A DNA stretch of 64,000 nucleotides from a virus (taxonomy: Duplodnaviria; Caudoviricetes), in the IMG/VR virus record IMGVR_UViG_3300011335_000457, positions 16,537 to 80,536 of that record, one strand, 5' to 3'. Positions 13,868 to 53,711 of this stretch are shown here, in pieces. Position 1 is the stretch's first letter, and each line of letters starts with the position of its first letter. Below the pieces are notes generated by a model. It was not told the origin of the DNA. It ran no database searches and saw only the letters and a program-made list of their open reading frames with translations. Both the position numbers and the translations under genes were made by a program.

Positions 13868-14134
13868 ATGAAAAATGGATTAAAAGGAGTTACAGATGCT
13901 ACTGTATTTTGTAAGTCAATGAAAAAAGGTGGTCCTGCTGCAATGATACAACCAATGTCAAAATACATAGCTGGTGGTACTGCGGGTTTACAGGTTGCTG
14001 AAACTGAATCAGCTGATAGTGCTAAACCACCAAGATGGTGGAAAAATCTTAAACGTAATATAAGTAATATGAAGTTAAGAAACAATCAAAAGTCAAATAG
14101 ACACAGATGTACAGGTGTTGGTTGTGTAGAATAA
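13868..14134 (+). CDS. Small basic protein carrying xxGG motifs
   Basis: MKKGG, YIAGG; followed by a terminator at 14154-14183. Confidence 0.55.
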   Translation: MKNGLKGVTDATVFCKSMKKGGPAAMIQPMSKYIAGGTAGLQVAETESADSAKPPRWWKNLKRNISNMKLRNNQKSNRHRCTGVGCVE

Positions 14135-14246
14135 AACACTAAACTTACTATAGTCCAGGTATATTGTATGCCTGGATTTTTTGTTTTTAAATATTTGGGG
14201 TTTAAACTTTTTTTGTATATTTGTCTAAACCTTAAAAATATAAAAC

Positions 14247-14534
14247 ATGGAAAATCAACAAAATGATGAGCATTTAACAGCAGATCAGTTAGCAGAAAAG
14301 AAAGCAGCAATGTTAGAATTTTACACAGATTCATTAACATATTTGGATGCTCAATTAGTTTATGAACAAAAGCTATTAGCTATTGATGAGGCAAGATTTA
14401 AAAGAATGAGTATGCAGATGCAATATGCTATTATGATGAATGAAGCTAAAGAAAATGGTGAAGGTAATGATCTTGACAATGGATTGAATGACCCACAAAA
14501 TCCAGCACCAGCAAGAAAGCTTAAGAAAGACTAA
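14247..14534 (+). CDS. Hypothetical coiled-coil protein
   Basis: ORF after a TATATTTG box (14216-14223). Confidence 0.65.
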   Translation: MENQQNDEHLTADQLAEKKAAMLEFYTDSLTYLDAQLVYEQKLLAIDEARFKRMSMQMQYAIMMNEAKENGEGNDLDNGLNDPQNPAPARKLKKD

Positions 14535-14536
14535 TC

Positions 14537-15556: not shown

Positions 15557-15560
15557 TAGT

Positions 15561-17489: not shown

Positions 17490-17500
17490 TAAAAAACCAA

Positions 17501-19696
17501 ATGGAAATATTTGAAAATATACCCACATGGGATAATGGTATCTGGACAATAACTAATTTTAATTCTAGAGAAGAGTTATCAGATTTTGTATTTAGCATAT
17601 TTAAAGAACCAGGTAAATATAACTTTGATGAAACAAGTAAACTATTTAATGCTGAGTCAACAAGATTCAGAAAAGATAAAATATACACAGCCACAATACC
17701 CAGATCAAAAGACTTTGTCACATACTGGGATGAGCAAAAACTTAGATGCAGAAGAGGAGTTATTTTTAAGTCCGGAGAGAATGCATGGTACATTACCAGA
17801 GACTATTATATGTGGCTTAATTTCTTGCCCATATTTGATAAAGAACAACAAGTATTTGACTTTGCTAAGATCAGGGATGCACAGTACCACATGGCCTTAT
17901 ATGAACTACTCGCAGAGCTCAACTACAAACATGTAGCTATTCTTAAGAAACGGCAGATAGCTTCTTCATACTATCACATGGCCAAGTTATTAAACCAACA
18001 GTGGTTTGAACCTGGGGTAACATTAAAGATAGGAGCTAGTCTTAAAGATTATATCAATGAAAAAGGATCCTGGAAGTTCTTACAGGAATATGCTGCATTC
18101 TTAAATGAACATACTGCATGGTATAGACCTATGTCACCAGATAAGGTAATGATGTGGCAACAAAAGATTGAGGTTAGAAAAGGAGACAGAAAAGCAGAAG
18201 TAGGTCTCAAAGGTACTATACAAGGTATGTCATTTGAGAAAGATCCTACAAATGGTGTTGGGGGTCCAGTTAAATACTTCTTTCATGAGGAGGCTGGGAT
18301 TGCTCCTAAGATGGATAAGACATATGAGTACATGAGACCAGCAATGAGATCTGGTTTAATTACTACAGGGTTATTTATTGCTGCAGGATCTGTAGGGGAT
18401 TTATCCCAGTGTAATCCACTAAGAGATATGATCCTTAATCCTATGTCTAAAGATATATATGCTGTAGAAACCAATCTACTTGATGATAAAGGTACAGAAG
18501 GTATGTCAGGTTTGTTTATTCCAGAGCAATGGTCTATGCCACCGTATATAGATCAATTTGGTAATTCACTTGTAGAAGAATCATTAAAGGCCCTTGATGA
18601 TCAGTTTGAGAAATGGAAAAAAGAACTAGGACCTGAAGATTACCAGCTAAGGATATCTCAGCATCCTAGAAATATAAAAGAAGCATTTGATCATAGATCA
18701 GTATCTGTGTTTCCTTCTCACTTAGTGGCTGCACAAGAAAGAAGAATAGAAGAGAAAGAATATCCATATGAGTTTTTAGAAATTGCTACTGATGTAAATG
18801 GTAAACCTGTTGTTACTCAAACAAACAAGAGACCCATTATGGAGTTTCCAGTTCCTAAGAAAATGGAAGACAAGACAGGAGTATTAGTAGTATGGGAAAG
18901 ACCTATTAAAGATCCAACCTTTGGACAGTACTATGCTTCTATTGACCCCGTATCTGAGGGAAAGACAACTACCTCAGAATCACTATGTTCAATCTATATA
19001 ATGAAAGCTCCAGTTGAAGTAACTAAGGTTACTGGTATAGAGACTGAAACATATATAGAACCAGATAAGTTAGTAGCTGCATGGTGTGGTAGATTTGATG
19101 ATATAAACAAAACTCACCAGAAACTAGAGTTAATAATAGAATGGTATAATGCATGGACCTTAATAGAGAATAACATATCTCTCTTCATACAGTATATGAT
19201 ATCTAGAAAGAAACAAAGATACTTAGTACCTAAGAGTCAGATTATGTTCTTAAAAGATCTTGGCTCAAACAGTAATGTATTCCAGGAGTATGGATGGAAG
19301 AATACAGGAACACTCTTTAAGGCACATTTACTTAGTTATGCTATTGAATATACTAGAGAGGAATTAGATGTAGAAACAAAACCTGATGGTACTATTGTAC
19401 GGACAAAGTACGGCATTGAGAGAATACCTGATCCTATGCTTCTCAAAGAAATGAGAGAATATGCAGATGGAGTCAATGTGGATAGGTTAGTATCCTTCTG
19501 TGCGCTTGTAGCTTTCATGAGAATACAACAGGCAAATAGAGGATATTCAAAGAGAGTGATAATGGATGATGTGGCTAAAAACTTGCAAAAGTCAGAAAAT
19601 TTGTTTAAAAGATCAGTCCAAGCATTTAGACATATGGGTACAACCAATAAGATAGCTAATAAAGTATCAAGAAGTCCCTTTAAAAATTTAAAATAA
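17501..19696 (+). CDS. terL: Terminase large subunit
   Basis: LKKRQIASSY ATPase motif, FFHEEAG Walker B, SIDPVSEG nuclease motif, VDRLVS. Confidence 0.92.
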   Translation: MEIFENIPTWDNGIWTITNFNSREELSDFVFSIFKEPGKYNFDETSKLFNAESTRFRKDKIYTATIPRSKDFVTYWDEQKLRCRRGVIFKSGENAWYITRDYYMWLNFLPIFDKEQQVFDFAKIRDAQYHMALYELLAELNYKHVAILKKRQIASSYYHMAKLLNQQWFEPGVTLKIGASLKDYINEKGSWKFLQEYAAFLNEHTAWYRPMSPDKVMMWQQKIEVRKGDRKAEVGLKGTIQGMSFEKDPTNGVGGPVKYFFHEEAGIAPKMDKTYEYMRPAMRSGLITTGLFIAAGSVGDLSQCNPLRDMILNPMSKDIYAVETNLLDDKGTEGMSGLFIPEQWSMPPYIDQFGNSLVEESLKALDDQFEKWKKELGPEDYQLRISQHPRNIKEAFDHRSVSVFPSHLVAAQERRIEEKEYPYEFLEIATDVNGKPVVTQTNKRPIMEFPVPKKMEDKTGVLVVWERPIKDPTFGQYYASIDPVSEGKTTTSESLCSIYIMKAPVEVTKVTGIETETYIEPDKLVAAWCGRFDDINKTHQKLELIIEWYNAWTLIENNISLFIQYMISRKKQRYLVPKSQIMFLKDLGSNSNVFQEYGWKNTGTLFKAHLLSYAIEYTREELDVETKPDGTIVRTKYGIERIPDPMLLKEMREYADGVNVDRLVSFCALVAFMRIQQANRGYSKRVIMDDVAKNLQKSENLFKRSVQAFRHMGTTNKIANKVSRSPFKNLK

Positions 19697-20487
19697 TGGC
19701 GTGTGTGTATGAACATATAAGACCTGATACAAATACTATTTTTTATATAGGTATTGGTAAAAAAAATAGTAGGGCTTATAGTAAATGTGGTAGAAATAAG
19801 CATTGGAAAAATATTGTAAAAAAATGCAATAATTTATTTACTATTAATATTTTACATGATGACTTATCCTGGGAAGAAGTTTGTCAAAAAGAAAAGCAGT
19901 ACATTAAAAAATACGGAAGGATTAACAATGATACAGGTATATTATGTAATATGACAGATGGAGGAGAAGGTATTTTAAATTTGCAACACACGGATGAAGC
20001 AAAATTAAAAATTTCAATTGCTGCTAAAAAAAGATATAAATTAAAACCACAGTGTAGAAAAGGACAAAGGTTTGTTAATAAGAACAGTAGAAAACTTGTA
20101 ATTGTGGATTTAAAAACTTATATTATATATAATTATAATACATTAGTAGAGGCATCTTTATTTTTAAGTACAAGTCCATCAAGAGTAAGAAGAGCTTGTA
20201 TTGTAGGGAAATCTATAAATAATTGTTATTTAAAATTTGGAGAAGGAATTAGTAAAGAAGAAATTAAAGAGTTAAAAAATAAAAAAGTTTATGCCTTATC
20301 TGACTTATCTATTCTAAATGTAAATAAAGATTATTCATGTATTCAAAAAAAAGTTATTAATTGTGAAACAAAAAAAGTTTATAGTTCAATATCTGAAGTA
20401 TGTAGAAACTATAATATAAAATATTCTACTTTATCTAGACAGCTTAATGGGGTTTCCAAAAATAAAACAATATTTAAATTAATTTGA
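19696..20487 (+). CDS. GIY-YIG homing endonuclease with NUMOD3/NUMOD1-type DNA-binding repeats
   Basis: CVYEH...FYIGIG, NMTDGGEG, HTDEAKLKIS, VINCETKKVYSSISE. Confidence 0.85.
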   Translation: MACVYEHIRPDTNTIFYIGIGKKNSRAYSKCGRNKHWKNIVKKCNNLFTINILHDDLSWEEVCQKEKQYIKKYGRINNDTGILCNMTDGGEGILNLQHTDEAKLKISIAAKKRYKLKPQCRKGQRFVNKNSRKLVIVDLKTYIIYNYNTLVEASLFLSTSPSRVRRACIVGKSINNCYLKFGEGISKEEIKELKNKKVYALSDLSILNVNKDYSCIQKKVINCETKKVYSSISEVCRNYNIKYSTLSRQLNGVSKNKTIFKLI

Positions 20488-20488
20488 T

Positions 20489-23239
20489 ATGAAAATAATA
20501 AATGCTTTACAGGCAAAAGGAGGAGCTACTACTGAGAATAATAGAATGGGTAGTATCACCCAACCATTACAATTTATTCCTAAAAAAGAAAAAGATGAAA
20601 AATGGGCTGCCTGGAACTTAGACTGGTTAGAATGGCAAGGTCTTAAACAAATCCGTAGAAATGCCCGGAGACTTATGAAAAACTATAAACTTGCAAAAGG
20701 TATTATAGATAAGTCAGATTATATAGTTGAGGAAAACAATGACTACAGAGATATAGTTGAAACACTTACTAAAGAAGATGTATCAGCACTTGAACTTAAG
20801 TTCTATCCTATTATACCAAATGTTATCAATGTTCTAGTAGCTGAGTTTGCTAAGAGATCTACTAAACTAACATATAGAGCAATTGATGAGTTATCATACA
20901 ATGAGCTCTTAGAACAAAAAAGACAAATGGTTGAGGATGTATTAATGCAAGATGCAAGAATAAAAGTTACTTCAGCATTAATGGATAAAGGTCTTGATCC
21001 AGAGTCAGAAGAATTTCAACAAGAGAGTTCACCAGAAAAACTAAAAAGCCTACCTGAGATTGAAATGTATTTTAGAAAAGATTACAGATCAATGGTAGAG
21101 GAATGGGCTGATCACCAACATAAAGTTGATGTTGAAAGATTCAGAATGGATGAGCTGGAAGAAAGAGGTTTTAGAGACATGTTAATTACTGATAGAGAGT
21201 TCTGGCATTTCCGGATGATGGAAGATGACTATGAAGTAGAACTATGGAATCCAGCAATTACATTTTATCACAAGTCACCAGATTCAAGATATATATCTCA
21301 AGCTAACTGGGCTGGTAAAACAGATATGATGACACCATCTGATGTTATTGATAGATATGGTTATCTAATGGAAGAAGAGCAGTTAGCTGCACTAGAAGCA
21401 GTATATCCCATTAGATCTGCAGGATATACAATTGGTGGTGTGCAAAATGATGGTAGTTTCTATGATGGTACTAAATCTCATGACTGGAATACTAATATGC
21501 CATCACTGGCTTATAGACAGTATACAACTGCAATGGGTGGAACTGTATTAGAAGGCGGAGATATTATTACACAAATACTTTCTGAAGGAGAAGACTATTA
21601 TGATCAAGGTACTGCATACTTATTAAGGGTATCAACTATATACTGGAAGTCACAAAGAAAAGTAGGACACTTGATTAGTGTTAATGATAATGGTGAAGTT
21701 GAGATGGATATTGTAGATGAAGATTATACTATCACAAATAAACCAATATATGACACCAGGTTAATGAAAAATAAAACTAAGGAGAACTTAGTTTATGGTG
21801 AACATATAGATTGGATCTGGATAAATGAGGTATGGGGTGGTATCAAAATAGGGCCAAACATTCCTTCTTTCTGGGGTATGAATAATCCTGGAGGATTTAC
21901 ACCAATGTATTTAGGTGTAGATAGAGCTAAAATAGGACCATTAAGATTTCAGTTTAAAGGAGATAATACTCTTTATGGATGTAAGTTACCTGTAGAAGGA
22001 TCAGTATTCTCAGATAGAAATACTAAGTCTACTGCATTACTTGACTTAATGAAGCCATACCAGATAGGATATAACATTGTCAACAATCAGATAGCTGATA
22101 TCTTAGTAGATGAACTAGGTACTATTATCATGCTTGACCAGAATACTCTACCAAGACACTCATTAGGAGAAGACTGGGGGAAAGGAAACTATGCCAAAGC
22201 ATATGTTGCAATGAAGAATTTCCAGATGTTACCATTGGATACTAGTATAACTAATACAGAGAATGCATTAAACTTCCAACATTTCCAAAAACTAGATCTA
22301 TCTCAAACAGAAAGGTTAATGTCAAGGATACAGTTAGCCAATCACTTTAAGCAACAAGCTTATGAAGTAATTGGTGTAACACCACAAAGGATGGGACAAC
22401 AGATAGCACAGATGACTGCTACTGGTGTAGAACAAGCTGCTGCAGCTTCTTATGCACAAACAGAGATGTTCTTCATCCAACACTGTGATTACTTAATGCC
22501 TAGAGTACATCAGATGCGTACTGACTTAGCTCAATATTATCATTCTACTAAACCATCAACTAGATTAAGTTATATTACTACAGCTGATGAGAAAGTAAAT
22601 TTTGAAATAAATGGTACTGATCTTTTAATGAGAGATCTTAATATCTTCTGTAGCACAACAGCTAATCACAGGTCTATATTAGAACAACTTAAGCAAATGG
22701 CTATGCAGAATAATACTACTGGAGCATCTGTGTATGATCTAGGTAGAATAGTTCAGTCAGACTCTATTGCTCAACTTAATACAGTTCTTAAAGACTCTGA
22801 AGCTAAACAACAACAGTCTAAACAACAGGAGATGGAAGCTCAGCAAAAAATGCAAGAAGATAAACTTAAAGCAGATTCTGAAGAAGCTAAACTTAAAAGA
22901 GAGTATGAAGAAGTTCAGAAAGAAAAAGATAGACAAACTGAAATTCTTGTTGCAGAAATCAGAGCAGCTGGTTATGGATCTATGGCAGATGTTAATGCAA
23001 ATCAAGTATCTGATTACCAAGATGCAATGAGAGACATTAGACAGACTGAACAATATCAAACACAGAACCAATTGCAAAGAGATAAAGATGCAACTAGAAC
23101 TATGTTAGATAGAGACAAGAATGCTATTGAAAGAGAGAAGTTAAATGTGCAAAGAGAAATAGCAGATAAACAGTTACAAGTAGCAAAAGTGAACAAAAAC
23201 AAGTATGATAAAGGTGGTGAAGTAAAAAATAAAAAGTAG
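20489..23239 (+). CDS. Portal protein
   Basis: 916 aa between TerL and the scaffold/MCP genes; long C-terminal coiled coil. Confidence 0.85.
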   Translation: MKIINALQAKGGATTENNRMGSITQPLQFIPKKEKDEKWAAWNLDWLEWQGLKQIRRNARRLMKNYKLAKGIIDKSDYIVEENNDYRDIVETLTKEDVSALELKFYPIIPNVINVLVAEFAKRSTKLTYRAIDELSYNELLEQKRQMVEDVLMQDARIKVTSALMDKGLDPESEEFQQESSPEKLKSLPEIEMYFRKDYRSMVEEWADHQHKVDVERFRMDELEERGFRDMLITDREFWHFRMMEDDYEVELWNPAITFYHKSPDSRYISQANWAGKTDMMTPSDVIDRYGYLMEEEQLAALEAVYPIRSAGYTIGGVQNDGSFYDGTKSHDWNTNMPSLAYRQYTTAMGGTVLEGGDIITQILSEGEDYYDQGTAYLLRVSTIYWKSQRKVGHLISVNDNGEVEMDIVDEDYTITNKPIYDTRLMKNKTKENLVYGEHIDWIWINEVWGGIKIGPNIPSFWGMNNPGGFTPMYLGVDRAKIGPLRFQFKGDNTLYGCKLPVEGSVFSDRNTKSTALLDLMKPYQIGYNIVNNQIADILVDELGTIIMLDQNTLPRHSLGEDWGKGNYAKAYVAMKNFQMLPLDTSITNTENALNFQHFQKLDLSQTERLMSRIQLANHFKQQAYEVIGVTPQRMGQQIAQMTATGVEQAAAASYAQTEMFFIQHCDYLMPRVHQMRTDLAQYYHSTKPSTRLSYITTADEKVNFEINGTDLLMRDLNIFCSTTANHRSILEQLKQMAMQNNTTGASVYDLGRIVQSDSIAQLNTVLKDSEAKQQQSKQQEMEAQQKMQEDKLKADSEEAKLKREYEEVQKEKDRQTEILVAEIRAAGYGSMADVNANQVSDYQDAMRDIRQTEQYQTQNQLQRDKDATRTMLDRDKNAIEREKLNVQREIADKQLQVAKVNKNKYDKGGEVKNKK

Positions 23240-23330: not shown

Positions 23331-24599
23331 ATGGAAGACACAACAAAAACTGGGGAGACCCAGACATTAGACTCTACAACGGTAGGTCAAGTAGATGTAA
23401 ATATTGATGAGATCTTTGGAATGCCAGGTGCGGAAAGTGTAATGCTTCCTGAGTCTGGAAAAGAAGAAGAAAAAGCAAAGTCTATGTTCTCAAAAGAAAA
23501 TGTAGACACCACGTTCCTTGACAACTCACCTGCTACTACTTACAAAGAAAAAGAAGAAGCAGCTGAAAAGAAAGCAGAAGTTGAAGAAACTATTGCTGAG
23601 CTTGATGGATTAATTTCTCAAGAAGAAGAAGCTGGCAACAAAGGAAGACCAAAGATTGATAAGTCTGGTCTAGCTGAGTTAGCTTACAAGATGATTGAAG
23701 AAGGTGGTTTAATTCCTTTTGATGATGATAAGCCTTTAGAGGAATACACAACAAAAGATTTTAGAGAACTTTTTGAAGCCAACTTCCAAGAAAGAGAAGA
23801 TAAAGTTAGAAAAGATGTTCCAAAAGAATTCTTTAACTCATTACCAGAAGAGCTTCAGTATGCAGCTAAGTATGTAGCTGATGGAGGACAAGATCTTAAA
23901 GGATTGTTTAGAACACTTGCTCATGTAGAAGAAATGAGACAATTAGATCCTTCAGATGAATATGATCAAGCTGAGATAGCAAGACAATATTTACATGCAA
24001 CCAATTTTGGTTCAGCAGAGGAAATTGAGAATGAAATCCAAGACTGGCAAGATGTAGATAAGTTAGAACAAAAAGCTAACCAGTTCAAACCTAAGTTAGA
24101 TAGAATGCAAGAAGAAATTATTGCAAGACAGCTAGCTGAGCAAGAGTCTAGAAAAGAGCAACAGCAAGATGCAGCAAGAACATACACAAATAATGTATAT
24201 TCTACACTTGCAACAGGTGACATAGGTGGAATTAAACTTGATAAAAAAACACAAGGTTTATTATACTCAGGATTAGTTCAACCAAATTACCCTTCAATTT
24301 CTGGTAAGCCTACAAACTTACTTGGACACTTATTAGAGAAGTACCAGTTTGTAGAACCTAGACATGACTTAATTGCTAAAGCACTTTGGTTATTAGCTGA
24401 TGAAAAAGGATTTGAAGCTAAGATTAGAGAACAAGGCGGAAGACAGGCTGTAGAAAAAACAGTAAGACAATTAAAAACGGAAGAAGCTAGAAAGAATACT
24501 ACAAGTTCATCAATATATGAAGAACCTGAAAGAAGATCTACTCCTAGCAGAGCTCCACAAAAAACCATCTCAAGAGCTAATATGTTCAAGAGATTTTAA
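23331..24599 (+). CDS. Acidic scaffold-like head protein
   Basis: Acidic coiled-coil protein between portal and MCP. Confidence 0.6.
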   Translation: MEDTTKTGETQTLDSTTVGQVDVNIDEIFGMPGAESVMLPESGKEEEKAKSMFSKENVDTTFLDNSPATTYKEKEEAAEKKAEVEETIAELDGLISQEEEAGNKGRPKIDKSGLAELAYKMIEEGGLIPFDDDKPLEEYTTKDFRELFEANFQEREDKVRKDVPKEFFNSLPEELQYAAKYVADGGQDLKGLFRTLAHVEEMRQLDPSDEYDQAEIARQYLHATNFGSAEEIENEIQDWQDVDKLEQKANQFKPKLDRMQEEIIARQLAEQESRKEQQQDAARTYTNNVYSTLATGDIGGIKLDKKTQGLLYSGLVQPNYPSISGKPTNLLGHLLEKYQFVEPRHDLIAKALWLLADEKGFEAKIREQGGRQAVEKTVRQLKTEEARKNTTSSSIYEEPERRSTPSRAPQKTISRANMFKRF

Positions 24600-24625: not shown

Positions 24626-26242
24626 ATGGCAACTCCAGTTTTAAACAATGGGATATTCCTCCGGGATACCGCCTATCAAGCTAGTTCCCATGTGGATTCT
24701 TACCACTTGGTAAACATGCTAAAAGATTCTGAACCTATGGATTTAGGTCCAGTAGACTTATGGGCTATGGCTCAGAAAGTTGAAATGCCACTTTACCAAA
24801 TGTCAAGTTTTGGTGGTAAAAATGTTATCATGGTTGATAATGCTCGTGGTGAGTACAAATGGCAGACTCCAGTTTCTACTGATCTACCTTACATCATTGA
24901 GGATATTGAACCAGACAACACATTCAAAGGACTTGAGGGATCAACATTCCGTATCAAGTTAAACAGAAGAGAATTTGGACATGGTGATATCATCACTTAT
25001 GACAAATACAATGGTGTTGAGATGTATATTACTGCAGAAGATATCCTTCCTTTAGGAGACGGATTTATCTATACTGTTCAGTTAGTAAACAATGATAACT
25101 ACAAATACATTGACAACAAGTACTTGGCTAATGGTACTAAAGTTTTCCGTAAAGGTTCTGCCCGTGGAGAATATGGTGAGAGATTCTCTGACATCACAAC
25201 AAGAACAGGATTCCGTGAATTCTATAACTTTGTTGGTGGTGCTGAAGCTCACGTACATTATTCTATCTCTAGCCGTGCTGACTTGATGATCAAAGGTGGA
25301 ATGAATGCAGATGGTACAGTTCCTGTAACTGAGATCTGGAGAACATTTGACAAATCTGTTGATCCATCAATCACTTCTTTGGAAGACATGGTTAAAGTAA
25401 TGGGTAAAGACAAAGTTAAAAAAGCATTTGACAATGGAGATTTGTCACGTACTTTCTTAACAACTATGGAGGCTGCTCACTTAACTAAAATTGCTTCTGA
25501 CATTGAGACTTACTTAATGTGGGGTCATGGAGGTAGAGTACGTCAAGATGGTCCAGATGATGTTAGATTATCTGTGGGTCTTTGGAAACAGTTGGATAAC
25601 TCATTCAAAAGAGTATACAACAAAAATAACTTTACACTTGATTTGTTCCGTGGAGAGATCTACAACTTCTTCAATGGTAAAGTTGAATTCCAAGGTCCAG
25701 ATCCTAAGCGTTCACTAGTTGTACAAACAGGTATGGGTGGAATGAGAATGGTTAATGAGGCTATCAAACGTGAGGCAGTATCTTCAGGTTTATTGATCCA
25801 AGCTGCTGACATTGGTGCTATCACTGGTAAAGGTATGGACTTAAACTTTGGATTTGCTTATACTTCATATGTGATTCCTTTCTTGGCAAATGTTAAGTTT
25901 GTACTTAACCCAGCATTTGACAATGTTCATACAAATGATATTGAGAACCCAATCATTGATGGTTTCCCATTATCTTCTTATTCATTCATTATCTTTGATA
26001 TCACAGATAACACAAATGACAACATCTTCTTGTTGAAATTATCTTGGGATAATCAATTGAAATGGTGGTATCAAAATGGTACTATGGACTACATGGGACG
26101 TAGCCAAGGATTCCAGTCTTCTGGTCAATTCAATGGATACCGTGTTATGATGTCTCAAACAATGCCAGCTATTTGGGTTAAAGATCCAACTAAAGTTTTG
26201 AAAATTGTTATGAGAAACCCAATCACTGGAGGTTCATTCTAA
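24626..26242 (+). CDS. Major capsid protein
   Basis: 538 aa, crAss-like gene order, highly biased codon usage, strong downstream terminator. Confidence 0.85.
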   Translation: MATPVLNNGIFLRDTAYQASSHVDSYHLVNMLKDSEPMDLGPVDLWAMAQKVEMPLYQMSSFGGKNVIMVDNARGEYKWQTPVSTDLPYIIEDIEPDNTFKGLEGSTFRIKLNRREFGHGDIITYDKYNGVEMYITAEDILPLGDGFIYTVQLVNNDNYKYIDNKYLANGTKVFRKGSARGEYGERFSDITTRTGFREFYNFVGGAEAHVHYSISSRADLMIKGGMNADGTVPVTEIWRTFDKSVDPSITSLEDMVKVMGKDKVKKAFDNGDLSRTFLTTMEAAHLTKIASDIETYLMWGHGGRVRQDGPDDVRLSVGLWKQLDNSFKRVYNKNNFTLDLFRGEIYNFFNGKVEFQGPDPKRSLVVQTGMGGMRMVNEAIKREAVSSGLLIQAADIGAITGKGMDLNFGFAYTSYVIPFLANVKFVLNPAFDNVHTNDIENPIIDGFPLSSYSFIIFDITDNTNDNIFLLKLSWDNQLKWWYQNGTMDYMGRSQGFQSSGQFNGYRVMMSQTMPAIWVKDPTKVLKIVMRNPITGGSF

Positions 26243-46427: not shown

Positions 46428-47350
46428 TGGCTGAATATAAAAAAGGTGGTTTAACTGGTAACAGCAATCTTTATGCTACTAATAGACTGTTTGTAAAAAA
46501 TCCACTATTCAAAAAAAGAAAAAAGAAAGCACCTGGGGTTTATGATCCTACTGCTAAGTTTAGATATAAAGAAGGTGGAGTTTCCAAAGATCCTTCTATT
46601 GCTACATTAAACCAAATGGCTAAAGGTGGTGATCCAGGTGATCCATTTTTAAAAAAGTTAATGTCTCAAATAAAAAAAGGTAATGAGAGTAAAAAACCTG
46701 TACCATCATTAACTAGAAAAGAACCTAAACAACCAACATCTAATTCTTTTAGTAATAAATCTTTATTAAATAAAGAGATCCAAAAACAAAGAAATAGAAA
46801 TAAAGCTTTAAAACAAACACTCCCTGAAATAGAAATTATTGGTAAAAGATCTAAAAATAATCTTGAAAACAAAGTACCAAAAAAACTCATTACTCCAAGT
46901 AATGCTAAATACATAAATCAGGATTGGAAAAAAGAAGCAATGGTGCCTGATTCTTTTACAGAAAATATTGGTGAATTTATTGATCCAACTGGACATACTT
47001 CTTGGGATGATGCATATAGAGCTTATACAGGATGGGATGAAAGTGGTAAAAAATTACCAAGTTTAAGTCAGGCAGCTGATATGTTTGGTGCTGTACCTGT
47101 TTTAGGAAAGCTTGGAAAACTAAAGTACTTAGTTGAAGGAGAGGGTTTAACCAAATCAGCTTATCATTACTTACCTTGGCAGCAAATAGTTAATACTTTT
47201 GATACTGTAGATGATGTTGAGACTGATAATGTTAATGAAAAAAAGAATGGCGGAGCAATTCAAGATTTATCTAAAGAAGAAATACAATGGTATATAGATA
47301 ATGGTTACATTGTAGAACCAGTAACTAAACTTAAAAAGTTTATTGATTAA
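46427..47350 (+). CDS. Putative internal cargo protein
   Basis: Four xxGG motifs, low-complexity composition. Confidence 0.55.
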   Translation: MAEYKKGGLTGNSNLYATNRLFVKNPLFKKRKKKAPGVYDPTAKFRYKEGGVSKDPSIATLNQMAKGGDPGDPFLKKLMSQIKKGNESKKPVPSLTRKEPKQPTSNSFSNKSLLNKEIQKQRNRNKALKQTLPEIEIIGKRSKNNLENKVPKKLITPSNAKYINQDWKKEAMVPDSFTENIGEFIDPTGHTSWDDAYRAYTGWDESGKKLPSLSQAADMFGAVPVLGKLGKLKYLVEGEGLTKSAYHYLPWQQIVNTFDTVDDVETDNVNEKKNGGAIQDLSKEEIQWYIDNGYIVEPVTKLKKFID

Positions 47351-47385
47351 TTTAAAATTTAGTATATTTAATTATAAGAAATACT

Positions 47386-50300
47386 ATGAAAGTAAGAATA
47401 TATAAAGCCCCTAATGGTAAGGGTATGTTTAAATCATCAATGCCTAAAGCAAGAGAAGGTGCTGCTGTAGACATGGACATGGATAGTTACATTGATCAAC
47501 AACTTGAAGAAGGTTTAGATCCAGAAGTAATTATAATGGGTTTAAATGAAAGCTATGGTAAATCTAGAGGTGAAGTAAAAGACTTAGTTTATGAAAAGTT
47601 TTTTAATAATGACTTTGCTTATCAAGATGATGATGAAGAAGAAGTAGCTGCTCCATATGATACCCCTGTAGAAGATACAGAAGTACAACCTGAAGAGGAA
47701 GAACAAGATAATGCTGCTGCTTATGGGTACAATGATGATAATATACAAGCTAGAGATTTAGTTCAAGAAGGTGTAGATGATAATGAAGAAGATGAAGGTA
47801 TGGCAAGATATGGTGGACAGTATGCTGATGGCGGGCAATTTGCTCCAGGTAGTATTATACCGCAGCCAAAGAAACCATATTATATTGGAATGGATGCAGA
47901 ACCTTTTGATAATGCATACAAACAGGGTGGTATGACTAAAGGTCAGTATGTAAAACAAAGAATTAAAGAACTTAGAAAAGCTGCACAAGGTGAAGAGGTT
48001 AAAAACAATGAGACTAACATTTCACCTAGAGGGACAATAGATAGTCCTTCAGGCTTTACAACACCTGAAAAAAATATAGCTTCCATAATTAAACAAACTG
48101 GAAATGAAGCTAAGTTAAAGGAAACAGCAGAAAATGAATATCAACAATATCAAGAATCTACAATGGGTGATAATTTCAATGGTAAATTTCTATTTGGTGG
48201 AAGAAATAGAAAAATAAAAAGAGCTAACAAAGCTATGTTTGGAACTCCAATGGCAATACCAGGAGTTGATGTAAATTATGAGTTTGGTCCACTAGGTGGA
48301 TTAAGAAAAGCTACTGCTGATTGGGACTTAGATGCCATTGGTGGACTAGCTAAATTCCTACCAGGAATGGCCGGAATGATGCCTGGAATGGGTGGTAACT
48401 ATAAAGCTACTTCTTACCCAGCACAAGTTAGAAAGAAAACAGTTAGCACTATTAATAATGCTGCACTAGATGATGTTGCAAAACAAAATCCTAATTCTAC
48501 TGCTGCACAAAACAATAGATCTGATAAAAAGAATGAGATTAGTTGTCCTCCAGGATCTGTATATGATCCAAGTTTAGGACACTGTGTTGACCAAGAAGGT
48601 AACATGGTAAGATCAATTGTTGATTTACCAGATCCAGAAGAGTTATTGGGTAATCCTTTTGAGAATCCAAATGCTAGAATGCTAAATGGTAAAAAAACTA
48701 TGAAAGCTACAGGACCTTCATCCAGTGTTAGTTCTACCGCAGCTTCTCAATCTACACAAGTTCCTGCTGCAGGAGGTGCTCCTTTACAAAGCCAACAAGG
48801 TATTGACTATGAAGCTTGGAAATATTCAGGTGCCCAAAATCCATTTACTACCAGAATAGAAAGAGAATGGGGTGAAGATTTTGGTAAAAATATTAAACAG
48901 TCTGGTGCTAAAGATAATCCTAATACAAGTTCTAATGAAAGTCAAGTGTGGAGTTCACCTGTAGATCAAGATAAATATAATGAGCTTATGCATTTATATA
49001 GTACTATTGGTCCAGAAGCTTTAACACCTGAACAATTAAATTTAATTGAACAAGATAGTTATATAACTACAGATAATCAAGGAAATGAATATAGTTCAAA
49101 TAATGAGTACATCCCTAATCCAGATTTTGATGCAAAGATGAACTTAATGAATACAATGAATGAAGTGTATGGTAAATCAGATTGGGATTATCTTAAAAAA
49201 AATAAAAAGTTATTTCAAAAAGAACATGGTGGTTTTGTAGATGCCGCTAACATGGATCCAAATATGCTTGCTAAGTTTATCTATGGTGGTAATGATTATG
49301 AATATGGTGGAGATGTTTTACCTCAAGCTTATGATGGGTTTGCTGGTAACTTTCAAAAACAAATGTTAGATACTAAGAATAGAATAAATCAAATGGGTAG
49401 AAAAAATCCTGCTGATTTTAATGTATTCAAAGGAAATGCATTTGGTAAAGCTACAACTGGTGTACAACCTTCTGGAACTGTAGGTAATAGATTCCAACCA
49501 ACTAGTCAACCTAATCCTGCTGCAAGTACTACTCAAAACCAACAAGGAGCAGGTGCACCTAAACAAACAACTACAACTACTACAGGTCAACCACAGATGG
49601 ATGCAAATACAATGGCTCAGTTTCAGAAGTATATGCAAATGATGCAGGGTCAACAAGGAGCTGGTCAAGGTCAATTCTGGTCAGGTAAACCACAAAGATT
49701 AGGTTTTGGTCTTACTAGAGATTTTAACTATGGATCATCTTACTCTCCTGTTAACTGGAAAGTACCTGAAGGAACTAAACATCTTAGACAAGAAAGTTAT
49801 AAAGATAGAGGTAAATGGTATAATCCATTTGATACTAAAAGAATTACTGATTACTATGCAGATCCTGAAGAAAAAGCTAAAGCAGAAGCTGAAGCTGGTA
49901 GTGATGATTTAATAAACAAACAAGGTTCTGGTAAAAATATTAAAACAGGAACATCCTTTAATCCAAGTGAATCTGAAACTGCAAAAGAAAGATTGCAAAA
50001 TAAAAGGTATGATAAGTTTATGGCTGAAGGATGGAAAATGGGAGATGATGAAACTCAAGAGCCACCAACTAGCATGAAGACTTTATCTACTGCACCTAAT
50101 TTGCCAGATCAACTGGAATCAGGAGCACCAGGTAGAATGCAACCTTTACCAGCATCACAAATACCTTTACAAGGAACACAAAATACTGAGCTTGACTTGC
50201 CAGAAAATCAAGGTGAAACTGAATTGCAAAATAATCCTTTTCAAGGAAATGCCTTTGAAGGTAATCAATTTGGTACTGCAGCTGGGGTAACTCCATCTGA

Positions 50301-51057
50301 AAACATGAGATTCACTCAAGGTCCAAATAACTTTAGTCCTTCTGCTGATACTTCAAATAAACTTGCTGGAAATGCTTTTGGAACTTCAAGTACTGGGATT
50401 ACTGGAAATGCTAACATGAGTAGACCAGCAAATACTCAAGAACCAATAGATGAAAGCGGTGTTCCATATAATACAGCAGGACCTCTTAATGAAGATATGA
50501 ATCAAGGTATGGCATACGGTGGCTATATGGCAGACGGTGGTTACATACCTGAGTATATGGCTTATGGTGGTTATATGCCACATGCTAAAGCTGGTATTAC
50601 TGTAGAGAATCCTGAGTTTAGTGATCCTAACTTTATTGGTAGAGAAATTGAAAATTCTGCTTATACATTCCATGGTCCTGAATTTGATGCAAATTTACGT
50701 TTAGGTAAAAAGGTAGCTACCAATGTTGGAAATGCATGGAATGAAGCAATACAAAGTAATGTTATGGCCAAACAAAACCGTTCATCTGATGCTGCTAAAG
50801 CTGACACAGGTCAATCAGGTTTTGGTAGTGCTGAAGTAACAGGTACAGATGCTGATGCAGGACAAATGGGATCTAAAGGTCACTATGATCAGTATGGTGT
50901 AAATGTAGGAAGCACAGGTTATAGTGGTAATAATCTTATTACTAAAAAAGGTGGAAGCATTAATTCACAATATTCTAAAGGTAAAGTATACAGTTTAACT
51001 AGCCAACAGATAAAAGCTATTGAAGCTGCTGGAGGTAAAGTAGAATATATAAAATAA
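47386..51057 (+). CDS. Low-complexity cargo/ejection protein
   Basis: 1223 aa, Q/N/G/acidic, many xxGG motifs. Confidence 0.6.
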   Translation: MKVRIYKAPNGKGMFKSSMPKAREGAAVDMDMDSYIDQQLEEGLDPEVIIMGLNESYGKSRGEVKDLVYEKFFNNDFAYQDDDEEEVAAPYDTPVEDTEVQPEEEEQDNAAAYGYNDDNIQARDLVQEGVDDNEEDEGMARYGGQYADGGQFAPGSIIPQPKKPYYIGMDAEPFDNAYKQGGMTKGQYVKQRIKELRKAAQGEEVKNNETNISPRGTIDSPSGFTTPEKNIASIIKQTGNEAKLKETAENEYQQYQESTMGDNFNGKFLFGGRNRKIKRANKAMFGTPMAIPGVDVNYEFGPLGGLRKATADWDLDAIGGLAKFLPGMAGMMPGMGGNYKATSYPAQVRKKTVSTINNAALDDVAKQNPNSTAAQNNRSDKKNEISCPPGSVYDPSLGHCVDQEGNMVRSIVDLPDPEELLGNPFENPNARMLNGKKTMKATGPSSSVSSTAASQSTQVPAAGGAPLQSQQGIDYEAWKYSGAQNPFTTRIEREWGEDFGKNIKQSGAKDNPNTSSNESQVWSSPVDQDKYNELMHLYSTIGPEALTPEQLNLIEQDSYITTDNQGNEYSSNNEYIPNPDFDAKMNLMNTMNEVYGKSDWDYLKKNKKLFQKEHGGFVDAANMDPNMLAKFIYGGNDYEYGGDVLPQAYDGFAGNFQKQMLDTKNRINQMGRKNPADFNVFKGNAFGKATTGVQPSGTVGNRFQPTSQPNPAASTTQNQQGAGAPKQTTTTTTGQPQMDANTMAQFQKYMQMMQGQQGAGQGQFWSGKPQRLGFGLTRDFNYGSSYSPVNWKVPEGTKHLRQESYKDRGKWYNPFDTKRITDYYADPEEKAKAEAEAGSDDLINKQGSGKNIKTGTSFNPSESETAKERLQNKRYDKFMAEGWKMGDDETQEPPTSMKTLSTAPNLPDQLESGAPGRMQPLPASQIPLQGTQNTELDLPENQGETELQNNPFQGNAFEGNQFGTAAGVTPSENMRFTQGPNNFSPSADTSNKLAGNAFGTSSTGITGNANMSRPANTQEPIDESGVPYNTAGPLNEDMNQGMAYGGYMADGGYIPEYMAYGGYMPHAKAGITVENPEFSDPNFIGREIENSAYTFHGPEFDANLRLGKKVATNVGNAWNEAIQSNVMAKQNRSSDAAKADTGQSGFGSAEVTGTDADAGQMGSKGHYDQYGVNVGSTGYSGNNLITKKGGSINSQYSKGKVYSLTSQQIKAIEAAGGKVEYIK

Positions 51058-51062
51058 TCAAC

Positions 51063-53711
51063 ATGAGATATAAAGTTAAAATAACAGAAGCTCCTGAAAT
51101 ATTTAAAGTAAGAGTTACACAACCTCCTAAAGCAAAAACAGGTTATCAAGTTGAAGGATCATTAGCAAATGATCTTTCAGCATTTGGTGGAGGTAACTTA
51201 AAACTTACAGAACCTAAAGCTGTATCTAGAACTACTATAACTAAAGTACCAAGAGAAGAAGCTAATCTAGAAGCTGAAGGTGGAGAGACTGTATTAACAT
51301 TTGATCCTTCTGGTTATCCATTGTTTTATGATATCAAAGGCCCTAGACATAGTTCTAATGGTGTACCATTAAATCTTCCGGATGATAGTTTTATCTTCAG
51401 TGACACTAAGTCTATGATTATAAAAGATCCTACTATACTTAAGATGTTTAATAAAGCACCTAACAAAGGAGGATACACACCGGCTGATTTATCTAAACAG
51501 TTTATATCACTTAACAAGTACAGGATGACAATGCAAAATCCTGATGCTGATAAGATACAAATTAAAACAGCTGAGCTAATGATTAAGAAAGCACTAATTA
51601 AATTAGGAGCTTTAGCATTAGCACAAGAAGCTAAGAAAGGATTCCCTCAAGGTATTCCTGCAGTAGCAAAACAATATATGGAAGCTAATGAACTTAGTGA
51701 ACAAGATATATTACCAGATGCTCCAGAACAAGAATCACCTGCTCAAGCTGGTCAAGCAATTGATATGGGACAAGCAATGGCAGAAGGAGCACCACAACAA
51801 GCTATGGAAGCTAATCAAGAAGCTCCAACAATGCCTGATGGTTCTCCTGTAGCTATGCCAGAAGAAATGCCACAAGAAGGTATGGAACAAGGTATGCCTC
51901 CACAACCAGGTATGAGATTTGGTGGTAGATTATTAAGAAGAGCTCAAGAAGGTTTACAAGCTGCATTAGGAAAAATAACTGAGAGAGTTCAAGCTGCCTT
52001 AGAAGCTGGTCAACAACTAGAAGAGATCTTAGTTGGTTTATTAAAAAATGATGTGACTCCTGAAGACATGATGGGCATTCTTGCCAATCTTGCTATTCCA
52101 GAACCTAAAGCTAAACAATTAATAAATCAAGCTTTAACAGATTATCAAACACAAGCTGCACAACAGCAACAGGCTGCACAGCAACAACAAGGACCTCCAA
52201 TGGGTCAACCAGGAATGCAAGCTCCTCCACAAGGACAACCTTCTCCTGAGCAGATGATGGCTATGGCACAACAAATGCCACAAGAACAAATGCAACAAGC
52301 TCCTATGGCTATGTATGGAATGGAGATGGGTGGTTATGGAATGCCGTTTTATAATGATCCTAATGAGATGGCTTATGGTGGTGTTCCTTTACGGCAAGCT
52401 GGTAATGGGGAAGTTGTTAAAGGTAAAAAAGGAGATGTGTCTGCAAATAAAGCAACTGACAAAAAAACTTTTGAATCCCATAAAGGAACTGCTACTAAAA
52501 CAGCTAGTGGTAAACAAGCTAAGTACTTGTATACACCTGGTGCTGCAAGAACATATAAAGGAGAAGCTATTTATACAGGTCCTGTAAGTTCTAAAGGTTA
52601 TGATAAAGCTGGGGTACAATCATTATGTGATAGGTTAATGAAAGGTGCTACTATTGAACAGTTAGCAGCTGAAAAGAAAGGAACTGTAGAAGGTCTTACT
52701 GCTTTACTTGCTCATTGTATTCCACAAGCTGAGGAAATGTTCAAAGAAAAAGAAGAAGCAATTTATTTAGATGAAGCAGGTACACCAACTACAACTACAA
52801 ATACAACAGCAGAAACAACAGAAGAAGAGTGTGTATGTACTGATCCTATGACTAAGCAAGAAACAGTATTTCCTAAAAATGCTGATGGTACATGTGAACC
52901 ATGTACATCTTATCAGATGGAAGAATCACTACAACCAATGGAAACACTTGGTATGCAATATCTTCCTGAAGATGATTTTACATTAGCTACAGCATTAGCT
53001 GCTAAAACTGCTAATACACAACCTATCAAGGGTAAATCTCCAGGGGTTAGAGAAAATGCATGGGGAACTGATTACATGGCTCAAGCTGAATTAATGAAAG
53101 GTATGACACAAGGTACCATAAATGCAATTCAAAAAACTGCGGCTAATAATCCTGCGGGAGCTATAGCTGCAATGATGGCTGCCGGAAGAGGTGCTCAAGG
53201 TAACATCATAGATCTAGCTTCTCAGACAAATGCTGATAATGCAACAAGAGCTACAGCTTTAAATAAAGCTAATACACAACATCAATGGAATCAGTTACTA
53301 CTTGAGAAAGACAACTCTGATGTTTATAATCAAAGAAAGGCTACAAGAGATAGTAATGTAGCTCAAGACTTTAATAATAAATGGGCTAATGTTGCTGCTA
53401 AAAATGCACAAAGAGAAGGTAATGCAAGAATGGCTGCTGTAGCAAATGAAGCTACTGGTATGAAATGGGATTATAAAACTGGTAGAAGAATAAATACTAA
53501 TAATAAAAAGATAACCCCAGAAGCACCAGCAGCAGACATTAAACAACAGGTTGCTGATTATGCTAAACTAGGTTATGATAAAGGTGAAGCTCTTAAAGCT
53601 ATTGGCTTAGACATGCAAGCTAAGAGATTAAATTCTAGCAAGTTTGGTGGAGCAGCATATAAGAAAGGTGGTTTTGTGTATGCGGATATGATGTATCCAT
53701 TTATACTCTAA
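51063..53711 (+). CDS. Cargo/ejection protein
   Basis: EAEGGE...GPRHSSNGV...FIFSD N-terminal block typical of crAss-like cargo; Q/M/P-rich linker; xxGG motifs. Confidence 0.65.
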   Translation: MRYKVKITEAPEIFKVRVTQPPKAKTGYQVEGSLANDLSAFGGGNLKLTEPKAVSRTTITKVPREEANLEAEGGETVLTFDPSGYPLFYDIKGPRHSSNGVPLNLPDDSFIFSDTKSMIIKDPTILKMFNKAPNKGGYTPADLSKQFISLNKYRMTMQNPDADKIQIKTAELMIKKALIKLGALALAQEAKKGFPQGIPAVAKQYMEANELSEQDILPDAPEQESPAQAGQAIDMGQAMAEGAPQQAMEANQEAPTMPDGSPVAMPEEMPQEGMEQGMPPQPGMRFGGRLLRRAQEGLQAALGKITERVQAALEAGQQLEEILVGLLKNDVTPEDMMGILANLAIPEPKAKQLINQALTDYQTQAAQQQQAAQQQQGPPMGQPGMQAPPQGQPSPEQMMAMAQQMPQEQMQQAPMAMYGMEMGGYGMPFYNDPNEMAYGGVPLRQAGNGEVVKGKKGDVSANKATDKKTFESHKGTATKTASGKQAKYLYTPGAARTYKGEAIYTGPVSSKGYDKAGVQSLCDRLMKGATIEQLAAEKKGTVEGLTALLAHCIPQAEEMFKEKEEAIYLDEAGTPTTTTNTTAETTEEECVCTDPMTKQETVFPKNADGTCEPCTSYQMEESLQPMETLGMQYLPEDDFTLATALAAKTANTQPIKGKSPGVRENAWGTDYMAQAELMKGMTQGTINAIQKTAANNPAGAIAAMMAAGRGAQGNIIDLASQTNADNATRATALNKANTQHQWNQLLLEKDNSDVYNQRKATRDSNVAQDFNNKWANVAAKNAQREGNARMAAVANEATGMKWDYKTGRRINTNNKKITPEAPAADIKQQVADYAKLGYDKGEALKAIGLDMQAKRLNSSKFGGAAYKKGGFVYADMMYPFIL

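Follow-up and report, generated by a model that had tools for sequence, protein, structure and literature searches.

Unrelated open reading frames (ORFs) in a 64,000-nt stretch of virus DNA, here called the window, carry the same short peptide motif ending in Gly-Gly, and the question is whether this motif marks proteins held inside the virion and whether it is cut during maturation or serves to dock them. A preliminary description of the sequence had offered both readings for pentapeptides beginning with Met, Tyr, Phe, Ala or Lys. The window comes from a divergent crAss-like phage, with Pfam matches to the crassvirus capsid, ring 1, ring 2 and muzzle proteins. Its own contig (G000) is 67% complete, and the relatives G001 to G003 are 90–99% complete. 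We found no paper describing the motif in the literature on crassviruses.

We compared motif counts with those obtained by shuffling residues within each ORF (ORFs are named by start position). Every pentapeptide listed in the preliminary description was present in the ORF given for it, and [MFY]-x-x-G-G was observed 22 times in the flagged ORFs, compared to about 3 expected, while the other ORFs remained at background level. The flagged ORFs include:

13868–14134, plus strand: 88-residue ORF with two motif copies, residues 18–22 and 33–37 (2 observed, 0.07 expected, P = 0.0012).
27361–27672, plus strand: 103-residue basic protein with one copy before a C-terminal module that is conserved in comparison with relatives.
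29171–29845, plus strand: 224-residue Gly-rich protein of strongly basic character (pI 10.2), carrying four [MFY]-x-x-G-G copies plus K-initial copies (4 observed, 0.44 expected, P = 0.0007).
30036–30344, plus strand: 102-residue basic protein with Gly-Gly and a basic tail near the C-terminus.
46427–47350, plus strand: 307-residue basic cargo protein whose modules are joined at the motif (3 observed, 0.14 expected, P = 0.0003).
47386–51057, plus strand: 1223-residue acidic, low-complexity cargo protein with eight clustered [MFY]-x-x-G-G copies (8 observed, 1.65 expected, P about 0.0001).
51063–53711, plus strand: 882-residue cargo protein, C1-like, with 974 homologues and five conserved motif sites that vary little or not at all in position in alignments A4 and A6 (4 observed, 0.65 expected, P = 0.004).

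Enrichment is individually significant in ORFs 13868, 29171, 46427, 47386 and 51063, but not in 27361, 29848 and 30036. The shuffled controls place the signal in a Met, Phe or Tyr at position −3 rather than in Gly or Lys content. The Gly-Gly dipeptide alone is not enriched, the combined Met, Phe and Tyr content is equal (10% in flagged ORFs versus 11% in others), and a hydrophobic residue three positions before the first Gly is enriched 5-fold. Met, Phe or Tyr occupies this position in 22 of 43 Gly-Gly pairs in flagged ORFs, compared to 11 of 85 in all others (Fisher P = 9 × 10−6). The broader first position originally proposed holds for Met, Phe and Tyr; Ala and Lys add noise. As had been claimed, early genes and terminase are at background, and so are the capsid protein, the tail proteins and two giant ORFs after position 53774. 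The accompanying A-x-x-G variant exceeds chance in ORF 47386 (22 versus 11, P = 0.001) but not elsewhere, and the two portal copies (residues 8–12 and 906–910) survive in the close relative L012 but not in L011; both are weak candidates for membership of the motif.

23204–23236, plus strand: C-terminal tail of the portal, basic at its end and carrying a motif copy.

This portal tail is of the same Gly-Gly-plus-basic-tail type as that of ORF 29171 and the C1 family. The portal gene spans 20489–23239, and a putative scaffold gene lies at 23331–24599. Across relatives, motif positions are held in homologues down to 38% identity while their flanks drift, and the surrounding segments, earlier described as disordered, could not be folded by AlphaFold. 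A nucleotide-level cause, slippery A-rich runs at Lys-Lys-Gly-Gly, was considered and rejected because motifs of the M-A-Y-G-G type lack such runs and conservation operates at the protein level across divergent codons.

The location of the motif-rich ORFs indicates what kind of protein they encode, as they occupy the cargo position 3′ of the muzzle gene.

40944–46427, plus strand: muzzle protein gene, which places the cargo genes (Pfam crAss_MUZ, E = 2.3 × 10−26).

It is followed by ORFs 46427, 47386 and 51063 and then by the two giant ORFs, an order similar to that of crAss001 gp44 to gp50; ORF 51063, downstream of the muzzle gene, is a member of this cargo block. Searches of the flagged ORFs against Pfam and PHROGs returned no informative family. 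The proposal that the motif marks internal virion proteins is borne out by this position and by a match between ORF 51063 and the crAss001 cargo protein C1 (gp45; PF25725, crAss_CARG1). The features of ORF 51063 are:

51177–51194, plus strand: motif copy S-A-F-G-G-G, residues 39–44, directly before the C1-like domain, with G42 and G43 invariant in A4.
51222–51725, plus strand: predicted folded domain, residues 54–221 (AF2 pLDDT 80), similar in VIA-align, hhalign and ESM Atlas comparisons to the crAss001 C1 domain that sits on the portal.
51912–51926, plus strand: motif copy M-R-F-G-G, residues 284–288, after the domain and a linker; full-length A4 relatives keep the copy, and shorter forms are without the segment.
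52302–52382, plus strand: best-conserved block, residues 414–440, with two or three motif copies.
53637–53672, plus strand: C-terminal double Gly-Gly, residues 859–870, copies 7 residues apart, with G862, G863, G869 and G870 conserved.

The copy at residues 39–44 lies in the same place as W-A-x-G-G in the C1 family, and that at residues 284–288 lies in a segment with pLDDT below 50, immediately before a helix at 288–314. Within the best-conserved block, P414, M415, G419, G423 and G439 do not vary among 62 sequences, and pLDDT is still below 50. The AF2 models leave the motif unstructured, and invariant motif residues at such low pLDDT form the pattern expected for a motif that needs a partner. 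Three residues conserved in ORF 51063 (H96, D107 and S113) were considered as a hidden protease triad and rejected, as they are spaced too closely and the domain matches the non-enzymatic portal-binding domain of C1.

We found the same arrangement in C1 itself, using 150 representatives, no two of which exceed 50% identity. Two near-invariant Gly-Gly copies flank the Pfam domain (residues 424–555). The copy at 427/428 is kept in 139 of 141 and 136 of 141 representatives with Trp, Phe or Tyr three residues before, and the copy at 562/563 in 150 of 150 and 142 of 147 with Phe or Tyr before. Near the C-terminus, crAss001 gp45 carries G821/822 and G828/829 with the same spacing as in ORF 51063; of 131 representatives, 104 retain G828 and 117 retain G829. 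Pro follows Gly-Gly at 13% of 488 C1-family sites; it occupies position 429 in 32 of 131 sequences and position 564 in 17 of 138. In crAss001 gp45 itself, a protein of 90.8 kDa when uncut, P211, W429, D564 and K830 are residues that come directly after Gly-Gly. The gp45 virion model (7QOG chain M, residues 425–552) starts inside the first copy and retains its A-F-G-G (PMC10172136); as A425 to G428 are present, this first copy was not cut off. The paper on the 7QOG structure (Bayfield et al. 2023) does not mention the motif (PMC10172136).

Several signals from structure and profile comparisons, each of them weak, suggest that ORF 51063 is probably the counterpart of C1; as such it would be expected on the portal wing of the virion in twelve copies. 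In an exhaustive VIA-align search with its N-terminal domain, 7QOG chain M ranks first among 48,161 chains and is the sole chain with Z of at least 5, although its Z of 5.3 is below the level that is safe alone (rmsd 5.3, 100 of 126 residues aligned, 19% identity). A Foldseek search of the PDB with the whole model and with the N-terminal domain yielded nothing at E ≤ 0.001 and missed this chain. The ESM Atlas provided the lead from ORF 51063 to PF25725; PF25725 itself did not match ORF 51063 at E up to 10, compared to 2.3 × 10−66 for gp45 in the same scan. Direct comparisons with gp45 were negative by BLASTP, by hhalign of the 51063 family against the single gp45 sequence, and by a single-sequence HMM test, in which an HMM of the N-terminal domain was run on gp45 and 2000 shuffled controls. 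The matches listed in a homologue search with the gp45 region were all 98–100% identical and were unusable as a profile. Homology became weakly visible only once the 150 diverse C1 sequences were used, when hhalign aligned the domain (P = 0.011, 30% identity over 64 columns) and the C-terminal part of the 51063 family (P = 0.0018). A PDB sequence search with the 51063 family profile gave one weak match in a coiled region (26fb_F, E = 0.014), which was not used.

The two proteins are alike in their position after the muzzle gene, in a domain of probably similar fold with the motif both before and after it, in the 7-residue double Gly-Gly near the C-terminus and in a weakly alignable, helical C-terminal part. 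They differ in that the domain is N-terminal in ORF 51063 and mid-protein in C1. The N-terminal 420 residues of gp45 (a Gly-zipper, a transmembrane helix and a tail-barrel helix) have no counterpart in ORF 51063; instead, ORFs 46427 and 47386 lie upstream of it.

In ORF 47386, the following clusters are invariant in relatives L001 and L002 (alignment A1), while their flanks diverge:

47800–47835, plus strand: motif cluster, residues 139–150.
49276–49311, plus strand: motif cluster, residues 631–642.
50509–50571, plus strand: triple cluster, residues 1042–1062, copies 6–10 residues apart.

The 16 relatives of ORF 46427 have modules replaced, duplicated or inserted directly after Gly-Gly, and the protein begins with a recurrent tag.

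46436–46450, plus strand: N-terminal tag Y-K-K-G-G, residues 4–8, found as [YF]-K-[KA]-G-G in 11 of the 16 relatives.

Pro follows this tag in five relatives. The short ORF 13868 and both of its copies are kept in G001 and G003, with Pro after the first copy in all three genomes. Homologues of ORF 27361 with 126 and 387 residues carry extra copies before the same C-terminal module, about 10 in the 387-residue protein of L011. Copies spaced 6–10 residues apart within clusters, and variable copy number in small basic proteins, would suit a cohesive or repeated-site role no less than a joint.

The small basic proteins connect this phage to marine phages outside its order. ORF 29171 keeps its motifs in L011 and L012 with module length and order altered, and it ends in the following module, which recurs in IMG/VR relatives.

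29732–29842, plus strand: residues 188–224, comprising a motif copy, a module with an EF-hand-like loop and a basic tail at the C-terminus.

Relatives of the ORF 29171 protein were found at 117 IMG/VR loci, many on contigs of 5–50 kb, and most match solely within its last 40–100 residues. A tblastn search of isolated phages with the whole protein found nothing, and a search with its last 45 residues matched three Pelagibacter phages. ORF 29848 is related to gp44 of pelagiphage HTVC027P, so its motif copy may simply belong to a shared family. Modules of the motif-bearing small basic proteins are shared with Pelagibacter phages and recur on marine phage contigs that are not crass-like; we found no prior mention of module sharing between crassvirus basic proteins and pelagiphages.

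We assign a probability of about 0.5 to the reading that Phi-x-x-G-G, where Phi is Met, Phe or Tyr (and also Trp in gut crassviruses), is a selected, uncut joint or docking motif of stored and ejected crassvirus proteins. The motif would be placed at the ends and module joints of otherwise disordered chains and would remain uncut, its hydrophobic residue acting as a small anchor and its Gly-Gly as a tight turn or hinge. Each module would seat on its holder, whether the portal wing, the tail-barrel rings or neighbouring cargo, and the chain would meanwhile be a flexible string that could be threaded out via the portal. The basis in hand comprises enrichment, positional conservation, predicted disorder, copies flanking the portal-binding domain and one copy retained in the crAss001 virion model, and module insertion or swapping directly after Gly-Gly was counted in favour of a joint. 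We infer that the motif itself makes contacts, and which partner it contacts.

The preliminary interpretation survives in its cargo marking and its lack of a recognisable protease, and of its two readings docking is the better supported. Under the cleavage reading, a maturation protease, either an unrecognised phage enzyme or one from the host, would process the basic core proteins and the cargo polyproteins, cutting after Gly-Gly as in adenovirus and African swine fever virus (ASFV). The copies at module borders and near protein ends resemble polyprotein sites, the very basic, small, multi-copy proteins are reminiscent of adenovirus core proteins, and the ordered gp45 helix 214–245 starts four residues past a copy (PMC10172136). 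Retention is known for one copy only, and others could be cut. None of the 94 ORFs scanned against Pfam is a recognisable protease gene, and the C5, C48, C39, S78, S77 and ClpP families are absent from the 67% complete contig and from its 90–99% complete relatives, but a new protease could hide among the roughly two-thirds of ORFs without a family match, such as a small HExxH ORF at 431–790 in the window. The enriched hydrophobic residue is at P5, however, and not at P4 (Phi-x-G-G), where adenain, ubiquitin-like and double-glycine-leader (bacteriocin) sites have theirs. Pro, a poor P1′ residue for Ulp1, deubiquitinases and other proteases specific for Gly-Gly, is enriched there in the C1 family and conserved at sites in this phage. 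Cutting the triple cluster of ORF 47386 would yield peptides of only 6–10 residues. Because of the retained gp45 copy, the Pro after Gly-Gly, the spacing of the hydrophobic residue and the six absent protease families, we favour docking over cleavage at the motif, which is, in our estimate, quite improbable.

A less improbable, though still unlikely, alternative is that the motifs are cohesive 'stickers', whereby aromatic or Met residues beside flexible Gly-Gly in disordered Lys-rich or Gln/Asn-rich chains cause cargo and small basic proteins to cohere with one another and with DNA, forming a dense cargo zone near the portal as RGG or FG repeats work in eukaryotes. Chains with many copies whose number shifts fast (1 in ORF 27361 versus about 10 in its L011 homologue), the tight clusters in low-complexity ORF 47386 and the presence of the motif in very basic and acidic partners alike agree with it. 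A discrete cargo zone adjoins the portal in crAss001 (PMC10172136), and the portal-tail copy could seed such a cargo mass. The same motif and modules in unrelated marine phages also argue for a generic partner. However, the C1-like copies are few and position-fixed at domain borders, which suits a structural joint better, and cohesion overlaps with the joint or docking explanation without excluding it. A neutral flexible linker, that is, an evolutionary seam that tolerates insertions and at which the motif has no job, or else a chance or compositional effect, is very unlikely. Module swaps do occur at the motif and Gly-rich linkers are frequent between domains, but a neutral linker would not hold a hydrophobic residue at −3, nor would it stay invariant in the 150 C1 representatives and the 62 relatives of ORF 51063. 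These conservation data largely refute the neutral seam, and the shuffles exclude composition as its origin.

Several known systems resemble an uncut joint or docking motif in part. The adenovirus (M/I/L)-x-G-G|x core-protein sites and the ASFV G-G|x polyprotein sites likewise place a hydrophobic residue before Gly-Gly, repeated in basic DNA-packed proteins; one residue separates the two there and two do so here, where Pro is common next, no clan CE protease was found and one copy is uncut in the virion. The T4 capsid targeting sequence and the phiKZ and SPN3US propeptides are also short signals shared by unrelated head-internal proteins, but they sit at the N-terminus alone, interact with the scaffold core and are cut away at x-x-Glu by the prohead protease, whereas here the motif occurs internally as well as at both protein ends, and a search for a prohead protease (S77) found none. 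Encapsulin cargo-loading peptides are similarly short, Gly-containing and located in disordered linkers or tails, and they dock uncut inside an HK97-fold shell. They usually occur once per cargo with the shell protein as receptor, while here the portal, which binds a neighbouring domain, is the one partner located; published loading peptides have a consensus other than Phi-x-x-G-G. Eukaryotic RGG and FG repeats likewise place aromatic or basic residues beside Gly-Gly, many times over along low-complexity chains, and differ in that Lys replaces Arg here, the hydrophobic position is fixed and the C1-family sites are few and positionally conserved.

A wider reading, which we hold only tentatively, is that tailed phages use Phi-x-x-G-G as a common address and joint code for the proteins inside their particles, read by a conserved procapsid partner (the portal wing, scaffold or cargo mass). 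The whole of the Crassvirales would share it and, by way of small basic proteins, so would unrelated marine phages, SAR11 phages among them. The overlap with the small basic proteins of Pelagibacter phages suggests that the principle extends beyond a single phage order. Among human-gut phages crassviruses rank first in abundance, and they are common in the sea. Having a conserved tag at the ends and joints of their cargo provides a handle, testable in the cultivable crAss001, on how several megadaltons of cargo protein, including the RNA polymerase, are selected, stored and ejected, and the motif helps to find cargo genes in divergent genomes where family models fail, as with ORFs 46427, 47386 and 51063 here. 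If the address code is true, a protein's sequence would suffice to predict that it is internal or ejected, and such particles could be made to carry foreign proteins.

By sequence, the window belongs to a distant crAss-like phage, an assignment made because Pfam finds the crassvirus capsid, ring 1, ring 2 and muzzle proteins in it. The capsid protein is 29% identical to that of the nearest isolated phage in GenBank, the window is G+C-poor (32–36%), and its source is a viral contig of 80.5 kb rated 67% complete. Three uncultured relatives of 107–118 kb are 90–99% complete. The ORFs in the cargo position, downstream of the muzzle gene, are named by their start coordinates and listed here with the structural genes:

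24626–26242: crassvirus major capsid protein (Pfam, E 6e-32)
39233–39895: tail ring protein 2 (Pfam)
39895–40941: ring protein 1 (Pfam)
40944–46427: muzzle protein (Pfam)
46427: cargo position, 307 aa
47386: cargo position, 1223 aa
51063: cargo position, 882 aa
53774: cargo position, 1169 aa
57300: cargo position, 2165 aa

The 2165-aa ORF (57300–63797) occupies the crassvirus place for a virion RNA polymerase subunit, and its sole match is a weak exonuclease PHROG (residues 1768–1863, E 2.4e-5). Also on the contig are two unidentified ORFs with matches to the PD-(D/E)XK nuclease family. An endonuclease VII domain protein (28586–29158, E 1.3e-14) sits amid the small basic genes, and a GIY-YIG signal, weak at E 0.2, occurs in ORF 19696–20487 between terminase and portal; the two resemble homing-endonuclease-type insertions into the structural module.

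The preliminary description held that a [M/Y/F/A/K]-x-x-G-G pattern marks the presumed internal virion proteins (ORFs 13868, 27361, 29171, 29848, 30036, 46427, 47386 and 51063), and all of its listed pentapeptides were found in the sequence. When residues were shuffled within each ORF, the Gly-Gly dipeptide by itself was not enriched; the enriched feature was Met, Phe or Tyr at position −3 from Gly-Gly, while the Ala and Lys alternatives contributed little and the proposed A-x-x-G variant exceeded chance in 47386 only. The [MFY]-x-x-G-G motif occurs twice in 13868 (0.07 expected), four times in 29171 (0.44), three times in 46427 (0.14), eight times in 47386 (1.65) and four times in 51063 (0.65), with shuffle p values from 0.004 to about 0.0001. 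The flagged ORFs contain 43 Gly-Gly sites, 22 of them with Met, Phe or Tyr at −3, against 11 of 85 sites in all others (Fisher p 9e-6), the content of these residues being equal in both groups. The early genes and terminase, described as motif-poor, were indeed at background level in the shuffles, as were the capsid, the tail proteins and two giant ORFs.

An absence of positional conservation in homologues, named beforehand as a possible objection, is ruled out. The two closest relatives preserve the motif clusters of 47386, 46427 and 51063 without change, while the intervening sequence drifts or is replaced. ORF 13868 is a real gene, retained by two relatives together with its two copies of the motif. 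The portal copies are retained in a close relative but missing in a more distant one. At a cut-off of E 0.001, 974 sequences belong to the 51063 family; a comparison of 62 of them, the most distant at 37% identity, shows P414, M415, G419, G423, G439 and G870 among the invariant residues, and Y418, G424, G440, G862, G863 and G869 as near-invariant. AlphaFold2 with the family alignment folded several 51063 domains and gave a pLDDT below 50 to residues 220–289, 404–448 and 856–882, the very segments that carry the motif copies and invariant residues. In these models, conserved yet apparently unfolded segments form the pattern expected of a short linear motif that would act with a partner.

The protein encoded by 51063 is probably a C1-type cargo protein, since signals that are weak one by one concur with one another and with gene order. 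The ESM Atlas led from its residues 55–220 to clusters annotated with PF25725, the domain of cargo protein C1 (gp45) of Bacteroides phage crAss001; the similarity escaped Pfam and BLASTP, as well as hhalign with gp45 as the single target and an HMM test controlled by shuffled sequences. We folded residues 30–225 alone (pLDDT 80) and searched 48,161 representative PDB chains with this model by structural alignment. Only one chain reached a Z of 5, and it was also the top match: 7qog_M, the portal-bound domain of gp45 (residues 425–552; Z 5.3 over 100 aligned residues at 19% identity). Against 150 diverse C1 sequences, hhalign gave P values of 0.011 for the 51063 domain and 0.0018 for the helical C-terminal part of the protein, and the same domain core is fused downstream in two relatives of 46427.

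Related modules extend beyond crassviruses. Relatives of the very basic ORF 29171 (pI 10.2) are encoded at 117 IMG/VR loci, many on 5–50 kb contigs where the proteins are small, Lys-rich and motif-packed, and the match mostly falls within its C-terminal part, where a motif copy precedes an EF-hand-like loop and a basic tail. Across 278 Gly-Gly sites in 46 non-redundant proteins, Met and Tyr are enriched 5.6- and 5.4-fold at −3. The loop (residues 188–214; 29732–29812) resembles a canonical EF-hand calcium-binding loop, D-x-N-x-D-G-x-hydrophobic-x-x-x-D, and no family in Pfam or PHROGs covers it. The loop module is also present in Pelagibacter phages HTVC027P, HTVC103P and HTVC104P, and in the two examined (HTVC027P and HTVC103P) its genes adjoin portal and capsid genes. 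HTVC103P gp74 is related to ORF 28309 (28309–28584; DUF6321, E 6.7e-17), and in HTVC027P gp44 the loop module is joined to a C-terminal half related to ORF 29848 (29848–30033). Both window ORFs encode small basic proteins, and these clear Pelagibacter phage relatives neighbour capsid or portal genes. From these relationships, the small basic head-module genes seem to form a pool common to crass-like and SAR11 phages.

Some loop-module proteins of other marine phages share a conserved end, Pro-Ala-x-Leu-Ser-x-Gly-Glu-Phe-Val, carried at the related loci L050 (3158–4351), L058, L047 and L088 (6136–7431). In the two scanned, L050 and L047, PHROGs places this segment in the families of tape-measure and internal endolysin proteins, which are ejected. 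In HTVC103P, the corresponding gene lies immediately 3′ of the portal gene.

Among 150 C1 representatives (pairwise identity at most 50%), the motif was observed 488 times versus 129 expected. At gp45 positions 427/428, 139/141 and 136/141 representatives retain the two glycines, preceded by Trp, Phe or Tyr at −3 and Ala at −2; for the Gly-Gly at 562/563 the figures are 150/150 and 142/147, with Phe or Tyr at −3. These copies lie on either side of the Pfam domain (424–555). A third conserved Gly-Gly (828/829) lies within the basic C-terminal tail. An ending of Gly-Gly, two residues and a Lys/Arg run is common to cargo and small basic proteins (97 of 150 C1 representatives; 17 of 46 loop-module proteins; examples outside the C1 family at loci L012, 10817–11329, and L011, 11343–11816). 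Three ORFs of the window, including the portal, have it (0.5 expected), and such an ending could constitute a separate signal of C-terminal tails.

These observations bear on the two roles first proposed for the motif, cleavage by a maturation protease or docking of cargo; uncut docking is favoured, and a cutting site, whether for a new or a host protease, is unlikely. The published gp45 virion model starts at residue 425 (PMC10172136); therefore, one motif copy is retained in the solved virion, and in the mature particle A-F-G-G stays joined to the portal-bound domain. That study treats gp45 as a single chain spanning tail barrel and capsid, and none of its mass-spectrometry peptides spans a Gly-Gly site (PMC10172136). 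Pro is enriched directly after Gly-Gly (13% of the 488 C1-family sites; 32 of 131 at position 429). Conserved Pro residues also follow the first 13868 copy and occur in the N-terminal tag of 46427 relatives. Gly-Gly-specific proteases are not known to tolerate Pro well directly after Gly-Gly. Unlike the phage motif, adenovirus, ubiquitin-like and bacteriocin-leader sites have their hydrophobic residue one position nearer Gly-Gly. The preliminary description recognised no obvious protease gene in the window, and no protease family appears among 94 ORFs of the contig. Neither the contig, at its 67% completeness, nor the three 90–99% complete relatives contain any of the peptidase families C5, C48, C39, S78, S77 and ClpP, in searches that exceeded the family cut-off on control genomes for C48, C39, S78 and ClpP but not for C5 and S77. 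A new or host protease would nevertheless be compatible with these observations; roughly two thirds of the ORFs have no family match. One of these, a 119-aa early-region ORF (431–790, minus strand), contains H-E-x-x-H with a further His three residues later. No other zincin-like signature occurs in the window, and by sequence this ORF could encode a small metallopeptidase.

The best-supported reading, to which we give a probability of about one half, is that the motif would act as an uncut junction and docking element. Of 16 sequences in the 46427 family, 11 keep the N-terminal tag (residues 4–8), and immediately after Gly-Gly whole modules are inserted, duplicated or exchanged, among them a 30-residue acidic one, a Cys-Pro-x-Gly mini-module and larger domains. 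In gp45, the ordered tail-barrel helix (214–245) starts four residues past the copy at 205–210. A cohesive 'sticker', which overlaps with a junction and docking role and does not exclude it, is a tentative suggestion that draws on the tight clusters in 47386 and the quickly changing copy number in small basic proteins; a neutral seam or chance effect is very improbable. The mini-module itself (Cys-Pro-x-Gly, about nine residues, Cys-Val) is common to 27361 (27379–27423) and 47386 (48529–48573), recurs in numerous small basic proteins encoded on other phage contigs and weakly matches chitin-binding CBM_14 (E 0.04–0.08). No description of the motif in crassviruses was found in the literature searched. 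Because it is widespread and conserved among the C1 representatives, we infer that the motif is ancient and common to the entire order, including its gut lineages.
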